The position numbers and the translations under genes are program-made. The notes under the pieces are model-generated. The model saw only the letters and a list, made by a program, of their open reading frames with translations. It ran no database searches and had not been told where the DNA came from. This document shows positions 28,477 through 35,475 of a DNA stretch of 64,000 nt, piece after piece. Numbering within the stretch: position 1 is the first letter of the stretch; each line of letters opens with the position of its first letter. Origin of the DNA: a virus. Location: the IMG/VR virus record IMGVR_UViG_3300047673_000158, positions 19,412-83,411 of that record; one strand, given 5' to 3'.

Positions 28477-29418
28477 ATGGCGAACGACAGCGGAAACCTG
28501 CCCACAATGATGGTGCTGGGCGATTACATTTTCTCGCTAAACACCCTGGTTTTTCAGGAATGGGCGCGAACGACAGAATGGAAGTGGCCCGCGCAGGAAC
28601 GCATGGGCCAGCTTGCCGCCAAGCAATTCACGGGGCGAGGCGAAGACGCGCTGGAACTGCCGGGCGTGATCTATCCCGATTTCGCGGGCGACATTCAGAG
28701 CCTGGATGAACTGCGCGCCATGGCTAACGACGGGCTGCCCTACGATCTGACGGACAGCCTGGGGTTCTATCAGGGCCGATGGGTTATCAACCGGCTGGAC
28801 GAAAAGCAGACGCACCACAAGACGGACGGCACGCCGCGCAAAGTGGAATTCACGCTGCGCCTGTCGATCTTTGACGACGGTACGACGGCCGACGACGGCA
28901 GCAGCGTGCTGGACAAGGCCAGCGGGCTGGTGACGGCCGCCACCACGGCAACCGGCACCACCAGCGCCCTGTCCGGGTTCGCGAGCATGGCAAAGACCGT
29001 GCAGACCACGGCCGCCACGGCGCTGGGCAGCCTGAAGGCGGCCGCCGCGCAGGTGCAGACTGTCGTGGGGCCGGTGCTGGCCGAAGCAAACAGCGCTATC
29101 GGCGCGCTGAACCGTTCCATTTCCGTGGTGAATGATCTGCGATCCACGGCCGCCAATGTGGCCGCGCAGGTGCAATCCATCGGCAATATCGGCGCCGTGT
29201 TGAGCGGGTCAAAAACGCTGCTGGACAAAATCGAGGCACTGGGCACGGGCGCTTCGTCGGCAACCCGCGTTATCGGGAATATCAGCCTTGTGGCGGGTTC
29301 CGTGCCGTCCAGTGTGTCCATGGCCCTGTCGAGCGCGAGTAACGCCACCACGTCCGTTTCCAGCCTGCTGGATAGCACAAAGACCGCTGCAAATTCCCTG
29401 CTGGCCAAATTCTCATGA
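28477..29418 (+). CDS. P2 gpU-like tail protein with long Ala/Ser/Thr-rich C-terminal extension
   Basis: MMVLGDYIF, QFTGRGED, PRKVEFTLRL. Confidence 0.82.
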   Translation: MANDSGNLPTMMVLGDYIFSLNTLVFQEWARTTEWKWPAQERMGQLAAKQFTGRGEDALELPGVIYPDFAGDIQSLDELRAMANDGLPYDLTDSLGFYQGRWVINRLDEKQTHHKTDGTPRKVEFTLRLSIFDDGTTADDGSSVLDKASGLVTAATTATGTTSALSGFASMAKTVQTTAATALGSLKAAAAQVQTVVGPVLAEANSAIGALNRSISVVNDLRSTAANVAAQVQSIGNIGAVLSGSKTLLDKIEALGTGASSATRVIGNISLVAGSVPSSVSMALSSASNATTSVSSLLDSTKTAANSLLAKFS

Positions 29419-29636
29419 CAGCACAATATCTTTCCCGCGAAGGCGACACGCTGGACTATATCGCCTGGGCGCAATACGGGACCGTCACACCGTCGGTTCT
29501 TAACGCGGTGCTGGCGGCTAACTATGGGCTGGCCGACCTGGGGCCGGTGCTGCCGGTGGGCACCGTCGTGGCGCTGCCTGCAATCGACGTGGCAACGGAC
29601 GTGGCGACCACGGGCGAGGTTTCGCTATGGACGTGA
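29415..29636 (+). CDS. Tail protein X (LysM-like)
   Basis: GDTLDYIAWAQYG...N.GLADLGPVLP.G, VSLW. Confidence 0.9.
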   Translation: MTAQYLSREGDTLDYIAWAQYGTVTPSVLNAVLAANYGLADLGPVLPVGTVVALPAIDVATDVATTGEVSLWT

Positions 29637-30685
29637 ACGTTACGCCGTCGTTTTCGCTGAAGGCGAACGACAACGACATAACGGCCATCATCGTGGATCG
29701 GTTTGTATCGCTTTCGCTGACGGACGAAACCGGCGACAACGCGGACAAGCTGGAAATTGTGCTGGCCGACCACGTGGACGATGCGCGCATTAAAAAGCCG
29801 CCCACGGGCGCGGAAATCGCACTATCGCTGGGCTATGACGGCGTGATGACGGCGAAAGGTATTTTCGTATGTGACAGCGTGCGCCGCACGGGCTGGCCGC
29901 GCCAGCTTACGATTGTGGCGCACGCTGCGCCGTGGGACGAAACACCGAAAGGCAAAATAGACTTTCAGTCCCACAAGTCGCGAGCGTGGAAGGTGGGAAC
30001 GACCATCGGCGCAATGGTCCAGAAGATGGCGAAAGAGCATGGCATGACCGCGCTGGTTTCGCCATCGCTGGCCAGCGTGGCGCTGCCGCACATTAACCAG
30101 TCCGAAGAATCGGATATAAACCTGCTGCTGCGCATCGCGAAGAAATACGACGCCATTGCAAAGCCAGCCGGTGGAAAGCTGATTTTCACCAAGCGAGGCG
30201 ACGCCACGACGGTAAGCGGCGCGGCGCTGCCAAAAATTCCGGTGGCGGCCAGCGATTGCGGCGCATTCCAGTGGGAAGAATCCACGCGCGAGTCGGCGGG
30301 CACCGTGGTGGCCTATTACCACTCGAAGCGCAGCGCGAAGCGGCACGAAGTAACGGCGGGAACAGGCGAGCCGGTGAAGCGGCTGAAGCAGTATTTCCCC
30401 ACGCCAGCCATGGCCCTGGCTGCCGCAAAAGCGGAACTGGCGAAGCGGGCGCGCGGCGCGTTCCGGTTCAACGTGAATATTCCAGGCGAGCCGCGATTGA
30501 CGGCCGAATGCCTGCTGGACGTTACCGGGTTTGGTGACGAGTCAGACGGCGAATGGCTGGTGAAGCGCGCAATTCACAATATGAGTAAAGACGCGTACCG
30601 CTGCGTGGTTGACTGCGAAAGACCGAACAGCGACGCCGACGTGGAAGCAGTCATGAATGGCACGGAATCGGACGCGGCAGACTAG
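29627..30685 (+). CDS. Late control D/baseplate hub protein
   Basis: SLSLTDETG..ADKLEI, QSEESD..LLRIA. Confidence 0.9.
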   Translation: MDVNVTPSFSLKANDNDITAIIVDRFVSLSLTDETGDNADKLEIVLADHVDDARIKKPPTGAEIALSLGYDGVMTAKGIFVCDSVRRTGWPRQLTIVAHAAPWDETPKGKIDFQSHKSRAWKVGTTIGAMVQKMAKEHGMTALVSPSLASVALPHINQSEESDINLLLRIAKKYDAIAKPAGGKLIFTKRGDATTVSGAALPKIPVAASDCGAFQWEESTRESAGTVVAYYHSKRSAKRHEVTAGTGEPVKRLKQYFPTPAMALAAAKAELAKRARGAFRFNVNIPGEPRLTAECLLDVTGFGDESDGEWLVKRAIHNMSKDAYRCVVDCERPNSDADVEAVMNGTESDAAD

Positions 30686-30696
30686 CGAGAGCCGTA

Positions 30697-30791
30697 TTAT
30701 CCAGATGGACGAAACGCCGACCGTTCGCCACCGATGCCGCCGCCCCGCGCGCCCCTGGATGCCAGGGCGGCGGGGTTTATCCAGATGAACG
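30697..30791. repeat. 15-bp direct repeat TTATCCAGATG(G/A)ACG bracketing a GC-rich hairpin
   Basis: Copies at 30697-30711 and 30777-30791 in the convergent intergenic gap. Confidence 0.6.
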
Positions 30792-30815
30792 CAGGCCGCC
30801 CGCCTGCGCTTCGCT

Positions 30816-31457
30816 TTAGTCTTCCTCGCCTTCCACGTCCATGGCTCCATGAAGCGGGCAGGGCGGGCGGCCGACTTCCAACCACTTGCGCGTGATTCGC
30901 ACCGTGTAGCCGCATTCGGCGCACATGGCTTTGAGAAGCCGGGCGGATTGCTTTTTGGGGCCGGTGGACGATTCGCCGTCGCTTTCTTCACCCAGGCTAG
31001 GACCGTCTTCGCCTTCGCCACGTTGTTGCCCGCGTGCGTTGGTCCACCGCAGGCTGGCGTGGGGAATCTTGCCCAGCTTGTCAATGAACGGCTGCGCCCA
31101 CTCTTTGAATTCTTCGCCTACGACCGTGGACGTAAGCGGGCGTTTCAGGCCCAGCGCCATGACGACACGGGCAAACGCGCCTTGGTGCCCGCATTCGAAC
31201 CCCACGGCAGCGTGCGCCAGTTCATGCGCCAGGTGGCCGGAAATCATCATTGAATCTGCTTCGTCAGGGCGGATATGGATTTGAAAGCGCTTATCCGCGC
31301 TGGCGCTGGAATGCCAGCACTCCGCTGCTGCGCGTCCGTCTTTGCCTGCGGCCGGGAAGCCCACGGACACATAGAACGGCGGCAGCGGGTGGCCCAATTC
31401 TTCGAAGCGCGGGGCCATGAGGTTTGCCATTTCGTTAAGCCAGGTTTCGCGGTTCAT
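30816..31457 (-). CDS. SprT-like zinc metalloprotease domain protein
   Basis: LAHELAHA...GH...F; C-terminal CxxC...CPxH. Confidence 0.75.
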   Translation of the reverse strand: MNRETWLNEMANLMAPRFEELGHPLPPFYVSVGFPAAGKDGRAAAECWHSSASADKRFQIHIRPDEADSMMISGHLAHELAHAAVGFECGHQGAFARVVMALGLKRPLTSTVVGEEFKEWAQPFIDKLGKIPHASLRWTNARGQQRGEGEDGPSLGEESDGESSTGPKKQSARLLKAMCAECGYTVRITRKWLEVGRPPCPLHGAMDVEGEED

Positions 31458-31502
31458 GCTGAAAGTCCCTTTCGTTTCGTTATTCGTTTAAACGCAAAAC
31501 GG

Positions 31503-31531
31503 ATTCTAGTCGTTTACTTTTGGAAACGCAA
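31503..31531 (-). promoter_or_regulatory. Early promoter with operator
   Basis: Minus strand TTGCGT-17-TAGAAT; operator GTTTACTTTTGGAAAC 31512-31527. Confidence 0.75.
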
Positions 31532-31538
31532 GCGGGCG

Positions 31539-31571
31539 TAAAAAAGCCCGTGGCGAACAATCCACGGGCTT
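31539..31571 (-). terminator. Terminator of the ssb operon
   Basis: AAAAAAGCCCGTGG...CCACGGGCTT. Confidence 0.75.
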
Positions 31572-31606
31572 ATTACTTCAGGCTATGGAATCAGCCTTAC
31601 TTATGG

Positions 31607-32077
31607 CTAAAACGGTATATCGTCGTCCATTTCATCGAAGCCGCCGCCGTTCGTTGGCTTGCCTGCTGCGGCCGGGCGTTCCTGCCGTTCGCGCGCCGGG
31701 CGTTCGCTGCGCTGGCCACCATCGCCTGACGATCCGCCGCCTTCGCGCGGGCTGCCTAGCATTTTCATGGTATCGGCCACAATTTCCGTGCTGTAACGGG
31801 TTTCGCCGTCTTTCTCCCAGGTTCGCGTTTGAATGCGACCCTGGATAAACACCTGGCTGCCTTTCTTCAGGAATTCGCTAACGATTTCCGCCAGCTTGCC
31901 GAAGAATGCCACGCGGTGCCATTCGGTGCGTTCCTGTTTGGCGCCGTCTTTGTCTTTCCACGTTTCCGTGGTTGCAATGCGGATATTTGCTACAGCGTCA
32001 CCGCTGGGCAAGTACCGCACTTCAGGGTCCGCGCCCAGGTTGCCAATGAGTTGAACTTGATTCAAATATGCGGGCAT
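31607..32077 (-). CDS. ssb: Single-stranded DNA-binding protein
   Basis: [21 protein letters not shown]-terminal DDDIPF. Confidence 0.97.
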
Positions 32078-32122
32078 GAAAGTGACTTTCCGAAAGTTAA
32101 ATTGTATTACGAAAGACGCATG

Positions 32123-32383
32123 TTACGCGAACGTGGACGGCTGCGCCACGGCGCGAGTAAGCATCATGAAGCCGATTTGCAAATGGCGCTTCCCTTCTTC
32201 TTCCCAGCCCATGGCTTCGATTACCACGGCCTGTTTTTCTTCGTCGCCACGCGCGGCCGTGTACTGCTTCGCGGTGCGCTTTTGTACGGCTTCCACCAGC
32301 CGTTTTGTTTCTTCCCCGTGCGCTTCGATGCGTGCCAGAAGTTCTTCCGTTTCCGGGCTGGTGTTTTGCGTCATTTGGTCCAT
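32123..32383 (-). CDS. Acb2-like (anti-CBASS sponge fold) protein, divergent
   Basis: RIxxxG..QY..W...GK.HLQIGFMMLTRAVAQPSTF matches the recalled Acb2 pattern [22 protein letters not shown]. Confidence 0.72.
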   Translation of the reverse strand: MDQMTQNTSPETEELLARIEAHGEETKRLVEAVQKRTAKQYTAARGDEEKQAVVIEAMGWEEEGKRHLQIGFMMLTRAVAQPSTFA

Positions 32384-32443
32384 TGTGGTTCCTTTCTTGC
32401 TATGTCAACGCGGAACGTTTAATACATTCCGCATGAATGATTA

Positions 32444-32665
32444 TCAGCGATACCTTTCAAATTCTCTAGCGCAAACAGGGCCACAAAACAGCCTTAATTC
32501 GTCGCCTTCGAACGGTTCGGCACACCGTGGATTTTTGCAGCAGCCTTCTGCGGCCACACGCGGCGCTGCTTCCGCGCGTGCCCGTTGAGCCTGGATGGAT
32601 TGCGCCAGGTCAATCTCGATTCTGTGCTGGGCCTGGTCCAGCACGTCCGAAAACAATTCAGCCAT
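32444..32665 (-). CDS. TraR/DksA-like C4 zinc-finger protein
   Basis: SDVLDQAQ N-terminal helix plus CxxxxC...FCxxxC. Confidence 0.65.
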   Translation of the reverse strand: MAELFSDVLDQAQHRIEIDLAQSIQAQRARAEAAPRVAAEGCCKNPRCAEPFEGDELRLFCGPVCAREFERYR

Positions 32666-33161
32666 TTGCCTGGTTCTCTGCGCGTTCCATGGCGATGACG
32701 GCGCCAGCCAGGTAATTGATTGCGCCCAGCAGTTCCCGCACGCCAGCGCCGTGCGGCAGGCGCTGCGATTCTTCGGATTTTTTGAACGCCTGGCCCAGCA
32801 GCGCGCCGACACCGAAACGCCGCGCCATGTCCTGCATAACTTGCGCGTCGAACGGTTCGCCGTCTTGCGCGTGGCGTTCCGCACCCTTGCCGTGGGCTGC
32901 CTGCTGGAAAGCGCGAGCCAGTACGCGGGCTAAGCTTTGATAGCCCGGCGCGTCCAGCAGCACGCCGGATTCAGCGCGCGGCTTCTGTGGAATCACTTCC
33001 AAGGCGCCGAAATGGAAATGGTCGTGGGCGCCGGGGATTTTGCTGGCAAGCTGCACCACCACCATGCTGCCGTCGAACCGAACCACGCGGCCGTCGCAGC
33101 CTGCCATGGGCACGTGTACCGTGTCGCCCACGGATACGGAAAGTGTATTGGTGGCTGTCAT
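32658..33161 (-). CDS. Conserved phage hypothetical protein
   Basis: GKGAERHA...GQAFKK..E...ELLGAINYLA; coupled within the operon. Confidence 0.65.
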   Translation of the reverse strand: MTATNTLSVSVGDTVHVPMAGCDGRVVRFDGSMVVVQLASKIPGAHDHFHFGALEVIPQKPRAESGVLLDAPGYQSLARVLARAFQQAAHGKGAERHAQDGEPFDAQVMQDMARRFGVGALLGQAFKKSEESQRLPHGAGVRELLGAINYLAGAVIAMERAENQANG

Positions 33162-34135
33162 TATTCGGCACCTTCCAAAGCCGCATTCACGCCTGCCAGT
33201 TCAGTGCCGCCCGCCTGCGCTTCGGTGCGTTGCTTGTCGAACGCAGCGGCCTGTTCCTTCAGGTCTTCCGGGCAGCCCTTGGTGCTGATGCGCTTTTTGA
33301 TCGCGGCCGGTACGGCTGCCCACGCCTTCACCAGTTCCGCCGTGCCCTTTGCCGCTTCCATGCGCAGCGCGTCCAGCGTGCGCTGCTTTTCTTCGTCCAC
33401 CTTGGTGCCGCCGTCCACCCATTCACGGATGCGCAGGCCGTGTTCATAGCCCAGGAAGCCTTCGTGCCAGCCGACCGTCCCCACGATTTCTTCCAGGTCC
33501 GGGTGGCTTTTCAGCACTTCGCGCTGTTTGCCGCCGTCGTACATCATGATCGACACGGTAAGTTCGAACGGGAAATTCTTTTCGCAAATCGGCTGGATGC
33601 CCTGCGGTTCGTATTCCGTCTTTCCGTTGACCCGGACCATTTTCGTTTTTTCGCGGGCACGCATGCACGCGATAACGTGCATCGGCGACGACAGCAGCGC
33701 ATTCACGAAACGCTTATGCTCTGCCTTTGCGTCGTTCCATTTTGGAACCTTCAACACTGAGCCGGGCGGGTTCGCGATTTCTTCACAGCCGCCAGTGCCT
33801 TCCCATTCGTGCGACGTGCTATCAATAATCAGCACTTCGAAACCAGCCTTTGCCGCGCCTTCAATCACGTCAATGTAGCGTTGCGGGCTGAACGGCGCGT
33901 ACAGGTCGTGAATCATGAATTTCTTCACGTTGCCTTCTGCGTCCTGCAGGACGCGGGCGAACAGACGGCCGCGCCGGTTTTCCGTGCAGACAAAGCCGAT
34001 TTTCGACGTGTCGCCCTTCACCATGCCGTGGGCGATTTCCAGCGCCGTGCGGGTCTTTCCGCCGCCGCTTACCCCAGCCAGGCCAATCACCAGCCGGGCG
34101 CCTTCGCGTTCCGCAACTTCAAATTTGATAGTCAC
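33161..34135 (-). CDS. AAA ATPase, Sak4-like recombinase
   Basis: GVSGGGKT, LIIDSTSHEW; between exonuclease and ssb. Confidence 0.8.
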   Translation of the reverse strand: MTIKFEVAEREGARLVIGLAGVSGGGKTRTALEIAHGMVKGDTSKIGFVCTENRRGRLFARVLQDAEGNVKKFMIHDLYAPFSPQRYIDVIEGAAKAGFEVLIIDSTSHEWEGTGGCEEIANPPGSVLKVPKWNDAKAEHKRFVNALLSSPMHVIACMRAREKTKMVRVNGKTEYEPQGIQPICEKNFPFELTVSIMMYDGGKQREVLKSHPDLEEIVGTVGWHEGFLGYEHGLRIREWVDGGTKVDEEKQRTLDALRMEAAKGTAELVKAWAAVPAAIKKRISTKGCPEDLKEQAAAFDKQRTEAQAGGTELAGVNAALEGAE

Positions 34136-34150
34136 TTTCTTATGTTCCCT

Positions 34151-35275
34151 TTATGCGCCAAGACGCTGCACGCCCTGGCTGACATACCAAGCTGGCAATG
34201 CCAGGCTTTCCACTTTCTCGCTATACGCCGGAAACTTCCCGCTTTGCAGGCATTCCGCGTATCGGTTCAGATTTGCCCGATACTGCATCCGGCCTAGCTC
34301 TACGTCTTCCGCTCGCAACACATACACGCCGACCGCATACGGCGCCTTTTTTTCCACCGCGATAAACACAAACGCACGCGGCTTGCGCTTCACTGCCGCC
34401 AGGCCATCCCTGTAAAACGGGTCCTGGACGTGATACCGATAGTTAGCGCAAGACTTCGCGAATTCATGCGGGCTTGCGTCTTCTGTGGTCTTCAGGTCCA
34501 CCACAAAGTCGTCGTCAGTCAGGTAATCCGGCCGACAGCGACACAGCACGCCTGTTACCTTGTCAATCCAGTACACGGATTGTTCAGGACGCCCAGGTTT
34601 TTGCAGCAAGGCTGCTGCCTTCGGATGCGCCATAACGGCTTCGCGCATCTTGTGCAGCACGTCCCATTCTTCCGTTTGCAGGATCGAGCGGTGGCCGTTG
34701 TTGCGCTCCCATTCCGCCTTCAAATCCCGCCACAACGTCACCGGCTTACCGTTTGACCGCAGCAGTGTTGCAAGCTGTTCCGTCGATCCTGAAACGGGCA
34801 GCAGCCCTTCACGCGATTCGTTCAGCACACCAATAAGCTGCTTAAGTTCCGCGCCGCTCATTGCTTCGCAGGCTTCACGCGTCCACACCATCGTGTCCAC
34901 GTCAGTTTGCGCTGCAATGATGCGTTCAATCTGTTCTGCCTTCGCGCCCGTGGTTGCCAGTTTTGGCAGCCGCCTTGCGTTCAGGCTTTCCACCATCGAC
35001 ACCAGCACTTCCTTATCGTCAATGGCTTCCGGGTAATCGCTGCGCCGCATGCCCAGCGTGTATTCCGTCGCAAACACCTTGGGTTCCAACACCAGCGCAT
35101 GGAACGCGGTTCCGATGGCCTGCGCCGCCGTTGGCACCCTGTCTTCACGCGGCGCGTCCAGTGCTGCTTTCAGATGCGCCGGGCTTCGTTCGATCAGGTC
35201 CAGAAGCGACTTTGAAACCCCTGGGCCGCCGTGGTAATCCGCGTTCGAAATATCCGGGTAAATGCCTGGCTTCAT
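34151..35275 (-). CDS. RecE/exonuclease VIII-like PD-(D/E)xK nuclease (DUF3799)
   Basis: PGIY.DISNADYH, GTAFH, RCRPD, VDLKTT, YHVQ..FY. Confidence 0.9.
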   Translation of the reverse strand: MKPGIYPDISNADYHGGPGVSKSLLDLIERSPAHLKAALDAPREDRVPTAAQAIGTAFHALVLEPKVFATEYTLGMRRSDYPEAIDDKEVLVSMVESLNARRLPKLATTGAKAEQIERIIAAQTDVDTMVWTREACEAMSGAELKQLIGVLNESREGLLPVSGSTEQLATLLRSNGKPVTLWRDLKAEWERNNGHRSILQTEEWDVLHKMREAVMAHPKAAALLQKPGRPEQSVYWIDKVTGVLCRCRPDYLTDDDFVVDLKTTEDASPHEFAKSCANYRYHVQDPFYRDGLAAVKRKPRAFVFIAVEKKAPYAVGVYVLRAEDVELGRMQYRANLNRYAECLQSGKFPAYSEKVESLALPAWYVSQGVQRLGA

Positions 35276-35349
35276 GCGTTGAAATCCTGTGCTTCCTATC
35301 GAACATACACAAGCGCTAGAGCGTGTTATGTGCCTGTTCAATAAGGATA

Positions 35350-35475
35350 TTTTTAATCTTACGTTTCCAAATGTCAACACATAGGGAAACATTATTTAGG
35401 CTGTCGTTTACTACCAACAGGCCATTTTTACCTATGCGGTAAAGTTTGCCGATATTACCCGGATTCGGTCATAAT
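35350..35475. promoter_or_regulatory. Divergent promoter region with operator
   Basis: Leftward TTGACA-17-AAAAAT overlapping GTTTCCAAATGTCAAC (35363-35378); rightward TTGCCG-18-CATAAT. Confidence 0.6.

Follow-up and report, generated by a model that had tools for sequence, protein, structure and literature searches.

The acb2-like gene and its descent

The window analysed here, a stretch of 64,000 nt that corresponds to positions 19412-83411 of the IMG/VR virus record IMGVR_UViG_3300047673_000158, contains an acb2-like open reading frame (ORF) on the minus strand at 32123..32383. The ORF starts with ATG and, with its stop codon included, encodes an 86-amino-acid-residue (86-aa) protein of the Acb2 family, predicted to form a two-helix hairpin. 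Of the sponges known to counter cyclic-nucleotide immunity, Acb2 is the most widespread, and its Tyr/Lys pocket is treated as a hallmark of the family. We suggest, with modest confidence and from sequence comparison, that the 86-aa protein represents a recently arisen allele with a disabled dinucleotide pocket, and that the trinucleotide pocket was never present in its clade.

The ORF lies between ssb (31607..32077, minus strand; PF00436, E=3.9e-38; phrog_44), its downstream neighbour in the same early-operon orientation, and a small TraR/DksA-like zinc-finger gene (32444..32635, minus strand; 63 aa from an internal ATG), its upstream neighbour, for which the phrog_54 match was weak (E=0.0073). 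An earlier note, made from the letters of the DNA alone, had given the same place, length and pair of neighbours, in agreement with the ORF list and with these matches; the C-terminal sequence that it quoted is correct, except that the protein runs one Ala further and ends in AQPSTFA. A Shine-Dalgarno-like AAAGGAA, read from the sequence, stands at 32389..32395 (minus strand), 5 nt before the ATG, and the same motif precedes the allele in L005-L008. A chance ORF was ruled out by homology, by the ribosome-binding site and by conservation on 22 contigs, and a longer upstream start was ruled out because, in the ORF list, the frame opens at the earliest start codon that follows a stop.

The 86-aa protein is a genuine Acb2 homolog by descent and fold. 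Its sole match among PDB chain sequences in a phmmer search was Acb2 of phage PaMx33 ("p26", 8H2J/8IXZ; E=2e-5), the next hit being at E=0.78, and among PHROG families it matched phrog_717 (E=5e-9). The match to the Pfam family PF24729 (Acb2_Tad1_hairpin) had E=3.3e-4 and 21.2 bits and did not reach the gathering cut-off of 27 bits. Since 16 of 17 clade members matched PF24729 at E<=0.01 (best 1.3e-10), we attribute the low score of the 86-aa protein to its altered N-terminus. A profile search among 1.84 billion representatives recovered 804 proteins at E<=1e-3, and a profile built from 137 homologs found 8H2J at E=2e-36 and T4 Vs.4 (7UQ2) at 6e-8. PADLOC returned only a chance match to Cas3b (E=0.052), and NCBIfam only a sub-threshold sigma-factor match.

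Structures were predicted with AlphaFold2 as single chains only. The model of the 86-aa protein is a confident two-helix hairpin with helices at residues 10-43 and 48-80 (predicted local distance difference test, pLDDT, 91.9); residues 1-5 have a pLDDT below 50, and the model contains no beta strands. The 92-aa sibling allele described below gave the same hairpin, again with a low-confidence N-terminus as a monomer. When the model was searched with Foldseek, ranks 1-8 were all Acb2/Vs.4 chains (template modelling score, TM, 0.67-0.80), the best being 8h2j_A with a TM of 0.80 and a root-mean-square deviation of 1.9 Å. The Acb2 fold and the retained scaffold, which the earlier note had put forward and proposed to check by profile and Foldseek comparison with Acb2, are thus supported by the phmmer, profile and structure matches to 8H2J.

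Residues of the ligand pockets

In the solved Acb2, as described in PMC10312549, cyclic dinucleotides are held in a pocket formed by two protomers, by stacking on Y11 and a salt bridge to K26; both residues are highly conserved, and Y11A or K26A abolishes binding of cyclic GMP-AMP (cGAMP). Cyclic trinucleotides are held by R67 and T74 together with A70 and I71, and R67 and T74 vary in some homologs (PMC10312549). L14 and P90 make additional base contacts (PMC12393519), and the C-terminal F82 of T4 Acb2 is stacked against the ligand, with weaker binding in F82C (PMC12657218).

Residues were mapped with a HMMER alignment and with a MAFFT alignment of 173 sequences that included ORF24 of phage PaMx35. 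The latter protein has 93 residues, of which 14-93 are identical to the aligned chain of 8H2J, and this fixes the numbering. We found that G10-Y11-R12 of Acb2 corresponds to M-T-Q or to a gap in the 86-aa protein, whose first aromatic residue is Y41. K26 is replaced by E20 and L14 by T8. At the trinucleotide pocket, R67 is replaced by G59, T74 by R66, and L69-A70-I71 by E61-E62-E63. P90 is kept as P82 and the terminal Phe as F85; P90 is invariant in all 173 aligned sequences. Both alignments bear out the replacements that the earlier note had read by eye (loss of GYR, K26 to E, R67 to G, T74 to R, LAI to EEE), and the roles that it had given for Y11/K26 and R67/T74 agree with PMC10312549.

On the DNA, all on the minus strand, the remodelled segment of the dinucleotide pocket comprises the N-terminal 20 codons (32324..32383), in which DNA and protein alignments place no GY(R/K) motif. 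Codon 20, the K26 equivalent, is GAA (Glu) at 32324..32326, and its sisters have CAG (Gln) there; contigs of other runs show these two differences as well, at bases 32324 and 32326. Codons 59-66 (G-W-E-E-E-G-K-R; 32186..32209) cover the trinucleotide-pocket positions R67, A70, I71 and T74 and are acidic with one Arg. The C-terminal A-Q-P-S-T-F-A tail (32126..32146) carries the retained half of the dinucleotide pocket, P82 and F85.

Distribution of the replacements in the family and the clade

The replacements at the two pockets differ in how unusual they are. Among the 150 best representatives of the family, one per 50%-identity cluster, Y11 is present in 140 and K26 in 145; 137 have both, and the absence of both is rare (2 representatives). 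R67 is present in 76 and T74 in 61, 55 have both and 68 have neither. Because R67 and T74 occur together in only 55 of the 150 representatives, absence of the trinucleotide residues is ordinary.

The close clade of the 86-aa protein comprises 32 distinct sequences of more than about 55% identity. All 32 carry MGWEEE and R66 in the version G-W-E-E-E-G-x-R. Tyr is present in 18 and Lys in 21, and both are absent from 10 sequences of four lineages. Judged from these alignments, the difference at the trinucleotide site is a character of the clade, and the loss of Tyr plus Lys is specific to the 86-aa allele. The four residues had been treated in the earlier note as one set. They are indeed all replaced in this protein, but neither in one event nor with equal rarity: R67 and T74 vary throughout the family, and most clade members keep GY(R/K) and K26.

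Named members of the clade come from Caballeronia fortuita and Burkholderia vietnamiensis, and the clade probably infects Burkholderiaceae. A tblastn search of 50,697 phage records gave 4 weak records with at most 39% identity over the full length, so the clade appears to be absent from records of cultured phages. A scan of genome contigs gave one locus, in C. fortuita, and scans of metagenome contigs gave no clade locus.

A side observation concerns the three-fold pocket in the wider family. In 15 of the 150 representatives the T74 position is Arg, in most cases with an E/D-G/A-x motif before it, and none of these has Arg at the R67 position as well (0/15 versus 76/150 overall; Fisher p=1e-5). 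Arg74 without Arg67 may represent a second, alternative design of this pocket.

Recurrence and apparent recency of the Tyr and Lys losses

A tree of the 32 clade sequences was built from residues 27 to the end (66 columns). On this tree, in which only 3 of 20 inner branches are strongly supported, at least 8 changes of the Tyr state and at least 6 of the Lys state are needed, and losses of Tyr or Lys always fall on tips or young lineages.

Two pairs of close relatives give information that is independent of the tree. P0002, which has Asn11 and Gln26, is identical over its last 66 residues to three siblings with Tyr and Lys. Against P0271 it shows 6 differences, none of them outside residues 6-26 (chance under uniform placement 5e-4). 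Between P0274, which has Gln11, and P0012 there are 8 differences, and every one falls in residues 2-18. We also noted that the members of these two pairs are identical over the C-terminal 66-74 residues. Differences so confined to the N-terminus could be due to focused selection or to a 5' module having been exchanged.

No deep clade without Tyr and Lys was found; of the two double-loss representatives, P0026 and P0069, P0026 alone (Tyr segment absent, Gln at K26) was followed up, and a homologue search with it returned only itself. An uncontrolled Fisher test across the 150 representatives gave p=0.036 for co-loss of Tyr and Lys. The phylogenetically controlled test gave p=0.5 with only 4 usable pairs, too few for power, and the association is not relied on here. 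Within the sequences compared, the losses are apparently recent and recurrent and have not founded deep lineages.

Variation within the 86-aa lineage

The ratio of nonsynonymous to synonymous substitution rates (dN/dS) over residues 1-21 was 0.38-1.06 between the 86-aa allele and the 92-aa alleles and 0.17-0.42 among the 92-aa alleles. From the 86-aa lineage itself, 5 DNA sequences representing 3 haplotypes were compared. Seven of the 10 variable residues fall in positions 1-20 (binomial p=0.002), and the Lys-equivalent codon toggles between GAA (Glu) and CAG (Gln). On these counts the pocket segment appears to be unconstrained in this lineage.

Two genome copies in one record

The 83.4-kb record consists of two related phage genomes of about 43.3 kb, joined head to tail and about 90% identical, with several short non-homologous cassettes. 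Copy A covers record positions 1-43337 and copy B 43338-83411. The arrangement could reflect a double lysogen with the genomes in tandem, or the joining of two strains during assembly.

The second acb2 copy of the record, outside the window (L002:1498-1776, minus strand), also lies between the TraR-like gene and ssb. It encodes a 92-aa allele with GYK and K26, and the two proteins are 73% identical over 81 residues (tblastn). In the DNA alignment of the two alleles the window's gene has six codons fewer at its N-terminus, 15 contiguous nt (the Leu-Ile-Ser-Gly-Tyr codons) and a shift of the start by one codon, and the frame is kept. On the minus strand, the two sides of the 15-nt gap meet near 32367/32368.

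Nine neighbouring genes (28477-35392) were compared between the copies. The synonymous divergence (dS) of acb2 was the highest, 0.94 versus 0.16-0.53 for the others. The divergence of acb2 was taken from dS, as the identity in a long-block MAFFT alignment dips to 0.58-0.60 over acb2 and a dedicated pairwise alignment gives 82%. The dS values indicate that the split between the acb2 alleles predates that of the flanking genes, and that the alleles probably came to differ by recombinational exchange, not by divergence in place.

Gene neighbourhood

The minus-strand early block contains, in order, a PDDEXK/exonuclease VIII-like gene (PF12684, E=1e-37), an AAA_24 ATPase gene (phrog_1366), a 167-aa gene of unassigned function, the TraR-like gene, the acb2 ORF, ssb and a 213-aa gene. 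The TraR/DksA-like small gene is also kept in the other genome copy of the record, and P2-like tail genes lie beyond the early block. Among the 24 sequencing runs, no RNA run was listed as a holder of the sequence.

Two further features of this neighbourhood were noted. The 213-aa protein that adjoins ssb (30816-31457, minus strand; phrog_6361, function unassigned) has an H-E-x-x-H motif and a C-terminal Cys-rich, zinc-ribbon-like segment, and may be a protein of the metalloprotease type. The interval from the TraR-like gene to acb2 contains a short inverted repeat at 32410-32432, with 8-nt arms (7 of 8 paired) and a 7-nt loop. In the other genome copy the GCGGA/TCCGC arms are kept and the loop is different. 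This repeat could be an operator or an RNA hairpin.

Proposed interpretation of the residue losses

According to the explanation that we favour, the gene would be expressed from an early operon for replication and recombination (exonuclease, AAA ATPase, TraR-like gene, acb2, ssb), and its product, a two-helix hairpin, would by homology assemble into a hexamer, as in the Acb2 family, where the homohexamer has three vertex pockets. The clade would never have had the Arg/Thr trinucleotide pocket, and the 86-aa allele would in addition have lost the dinucleotide pocket: the missing N-terminal segment carried the stacking Tyr, and the phosphate-binding Lys is now Glu, or Gln in the sisters. The canonical cyclic di- and trinucleotides of CBASS, the antiphage signalling system based on cyclic oligonucleotides, would then no longer be sequestered. 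The loss would be recent and one of several independent losses in the clade. Its selective cause might be that binding had become useless, in a host without CBASS, or harmful, where a Panoptes-type guard that monitors decoy nucleotides is triggered by Acb2 binding. Precedents for the second cause have been reported. In 14 of 15 T4 escapers of Panoptes, acb2 had lost its function by mutation, and the binding-dead Y8A form of Acb2 leaves Panoptes untriggered (PMC12657218); decoys have also been argued to press sponges towards narrower specificity (PMC12393519). No SMODS/CD-NTase match was found in the one isolate genome with a canonical allele (0 of 1), a result that is uninformative for the host of the window's phage. 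The loss may reflect decay, escape from a decoy guard or retuning, and we lean towards a recently disabled dinucleotide pocket.

Several observations weigh against this explanation or against a dead relic. The ORF is intact and has a good ribosome-binding site, P82 and the terminal Phe, which make up half of the dinucleotide pocket, are kept, and the strong conservation of MGWEEE..R does not fit a plain relic. Over residues 22-86, dN/dS was 0.16-0.22 between the 86-aa allele and five 92-aa alleles and 0.07-0.21 among the 92-aa alleles; this low core value is not proof of constraint after the loss, because most of the long branch may predate it. Within the 86-aa lineage 5 synonymous and 5 nonsynonymous changes were counted, where about 1:3.5 would be neutral, a weak departure (binomial p=0.05). 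Nor is the allele merely a redundant second copy: a separate 43,301-bp record, rated 100% complete, has no other acb2, the allele exists in 6 protein variants spread over 22 contigs, and at least three further metagenome runs from the rhizosphere yielded contigs with it (exact in X4, as known variants in X6 and X7). Leu at position 22, found only in the four double-loss lineages, and the recurrent changes of Tyr to Gln/Asn and of Lys to Gln could mark a new specificity. In addition, the hexamer and the loss of binding in the 86-aa protein are deduced from homology and from residue replacements, and the selective cause is inferred as well.

The earlier note had offered a retuned sponge, a protein-binding derivative and an inactive relic. 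A retuned sponge, that is, an Acb2 hexamer that sequesters a different signal through a remodelled vertex pocket (N-terminus, E/Q20, P82, F85) or through an acidic three-fold site (E61-E63 with R66), is a serious rival, though it seems to us somewhat unlikely. A change of ligand has a precedent in Acb2_43, which uses N-terminal residues to bind 3' cyclic ADP-ribose (3'cADPR) and leaves CBASS uninhibited (PMC12393519). Purifying selection on the core, an MGWEEE..R motif more conserved in the clade than either Tyr or Lys, the recurrence of Lys to Gln and of Leu22 in double-loss lineages, and the hint of an alternative pocket design in the mutual exclusion of Arg74 and Arg67 point in the same direction. 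Yet the N-terminus is the most variable part of the protein within the lineage and position 20 toggles between Glu and Gln, unlike a newly optimised pocket; the first five residues are of low confidence in a model free of beta strands; forms without Tyr or Lys are tips or singletons rather than deep clades; and the acidic site with its neighbouring Lys/Arg residues could equally form an inter-subunit salt-bridge plug. The tip-restricted losses, the variable N-terminus and the E/Q toggle make a stably retuned pocket the less likely outcome, and of the options in the earlier note we incline to the disabled pocket; on a protein-binding derivative these observations bear neither way. A Glu at the phosphate-binding position and a short, variable N-terminus without an aromatic residue also argue against any anionic nucleotide at the old site. 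We find it rather unlikely, as a further elaboration, that the clade's dinucleotide pocket has been switched off repeatedly under the opposing action of CBASS, which rewards binding, and of Panoptes-type guards, which punish it; the 86-aa allele would then be "guard-proof" and kept for a second activity of the acidic MGWEEE..R three-fold site, for example towards a non-canonical, cationic or metal-bridged signal.

That the protein is still a cyclic-dinucleotide sponge, in which the C-terminal Pro/Phe and N-terminal polar residues compensate for Tyr and Lys, is very unlikely. P82 and the terminal Phe are kept, and the ligand contact of F82 in T4 Acb2 described above lends this some plausibility. 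But a single Y11A or K26A in PaMx33 Acb2 (PMC10312549), or Y8A in T4 Acb2 (PMC12657218), is reported to abolish binding, and here both residues are gone, with a negative Glu in place of the former phosphate-binding Lys and no aromatic residue before position 41. We give slightly less credence still to a role at the protein level, in which a pocket-less subunit would act by protein contacts, for example by co-assembling with, and so altering, the binding-competent Acb2 of a co-resident or superinfecting relative. Two divergent alleles do lie in head-to-tail related genomes of one record, and the solved dinucleotide pocket does span two protomers (PMC10312549). This proposal is purely inferential, however; a complete genome of 43.3 kb has the 86-aa allele with no second acb2, and the tandem could be an assembly join.

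Under the explanation of a disabled pocket, the 86-aa protein is predicted to be most like a pocket-null Acb2, a natural counterpart of the laboratory Y11A/K26A or Y8A mutants. By its residues it is an Acb2 by homology that lacks the family's functional hallmark, Y11/K26, and its annotation as an anti-CBASS dinucleotide sponge is not warranted without an assay. Even if only decay is involved, a homology-based label "Acb2 / anti-CBASS" can be functionally wrong. The diversity of Acb2 specificity has already been published (PMC12393519). In the literature searched we found no description of natural Acb2 alleles that lack both Y11 and K26, or of recurrent loss, and the supplementary tables of PMC12393519, a study in which 46 Acb2 proteins were tested, might list such proteins. 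The pocket-less 86-aa and the pocket-keeping 92-aa alleles of one record form a ready-made matched pair, which could test the scaffold without dinucleotide binding, whether Panoptes-type guards drive sponge loss, and the ligand of the acidic three-fold site.

Comparison with known systems

Tad1 is a hairpin with an extra domain that forms the pocket for glycocyclic ADP-ribose (gcADPR), unlike the 86-aa protein, which is the hairpin alone; no Tad1 chain was among the listed fold or sequence hits. The Thoeris-inhibiting Acb2_43 (9PTQ) was compared by description only, and was not among the PDB hits of the fold and profile searches. It is an Acb2-family member, as is the 86-aa protein; it does not inhibit CBASS, and its N-terminus sets its specificity (PMC12393519). 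In the same description it differs by extra N- and C-terminal beta strands, from which its 3'cADPR pocket is formed, and by its use of T4, H5, L6, V7, K19 and K55, whereas the monomer model of the 86-aa protein is strandless.

T4 Vs.4/Acb2 (7UQ2) has the same fold as the 86-aa protein (TM 0.79) and likewise lacks the Arg of the trinucleotide pocket; it has D61 at that position and does not bind cyclic triadenylate (cA3) (PMC10312549). It keeps the stacking Tyr (Y8), in contrast to the 86-aa protein, which lacks both that Tyr and the Lys, and it binds dinucleotides and the Panoptes decoy 2',3'-c-di-AMP (PMC12657218).

The Acb2 proteins of PaMx33/PaMx35 (8H2J, 8H2X, 8IXZ) share family, fold (TM 0.80) and length class with the 86-aa protein, and W68, G79, M81 and the TRAVAQP..F tail are conserved in it. 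It differs from them by the absence of Y11 and by the replacement of K26 by E, L14 by T, R67 by G, A70/I71 by E/E and T74 by R. The gene contexts are also different. The 86-aa allele stands beside ssb in a replication/recombination operon, whereas the JBD67 homolog is located beside the genes for the major head protein and the head-tail adaptor, and the PaMx35 homolog beside a gene annotated "structural protein".

The closest comparison is with the 92-aa sister alleles, L002 of the same record and that of the C. fortuita prophage (L017). They are 69-76% identical to the 86-aa protein and have identical MGWEEE..R and C-terminal tail sequences, and L002 shows the same synteny of TraR-like gene, acb2 and ssb. 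In the sisters, unlike the 86-aa allele, GY(R/K) and K26 are retained, and the stretch ahead of the first helix is longer by six residues.

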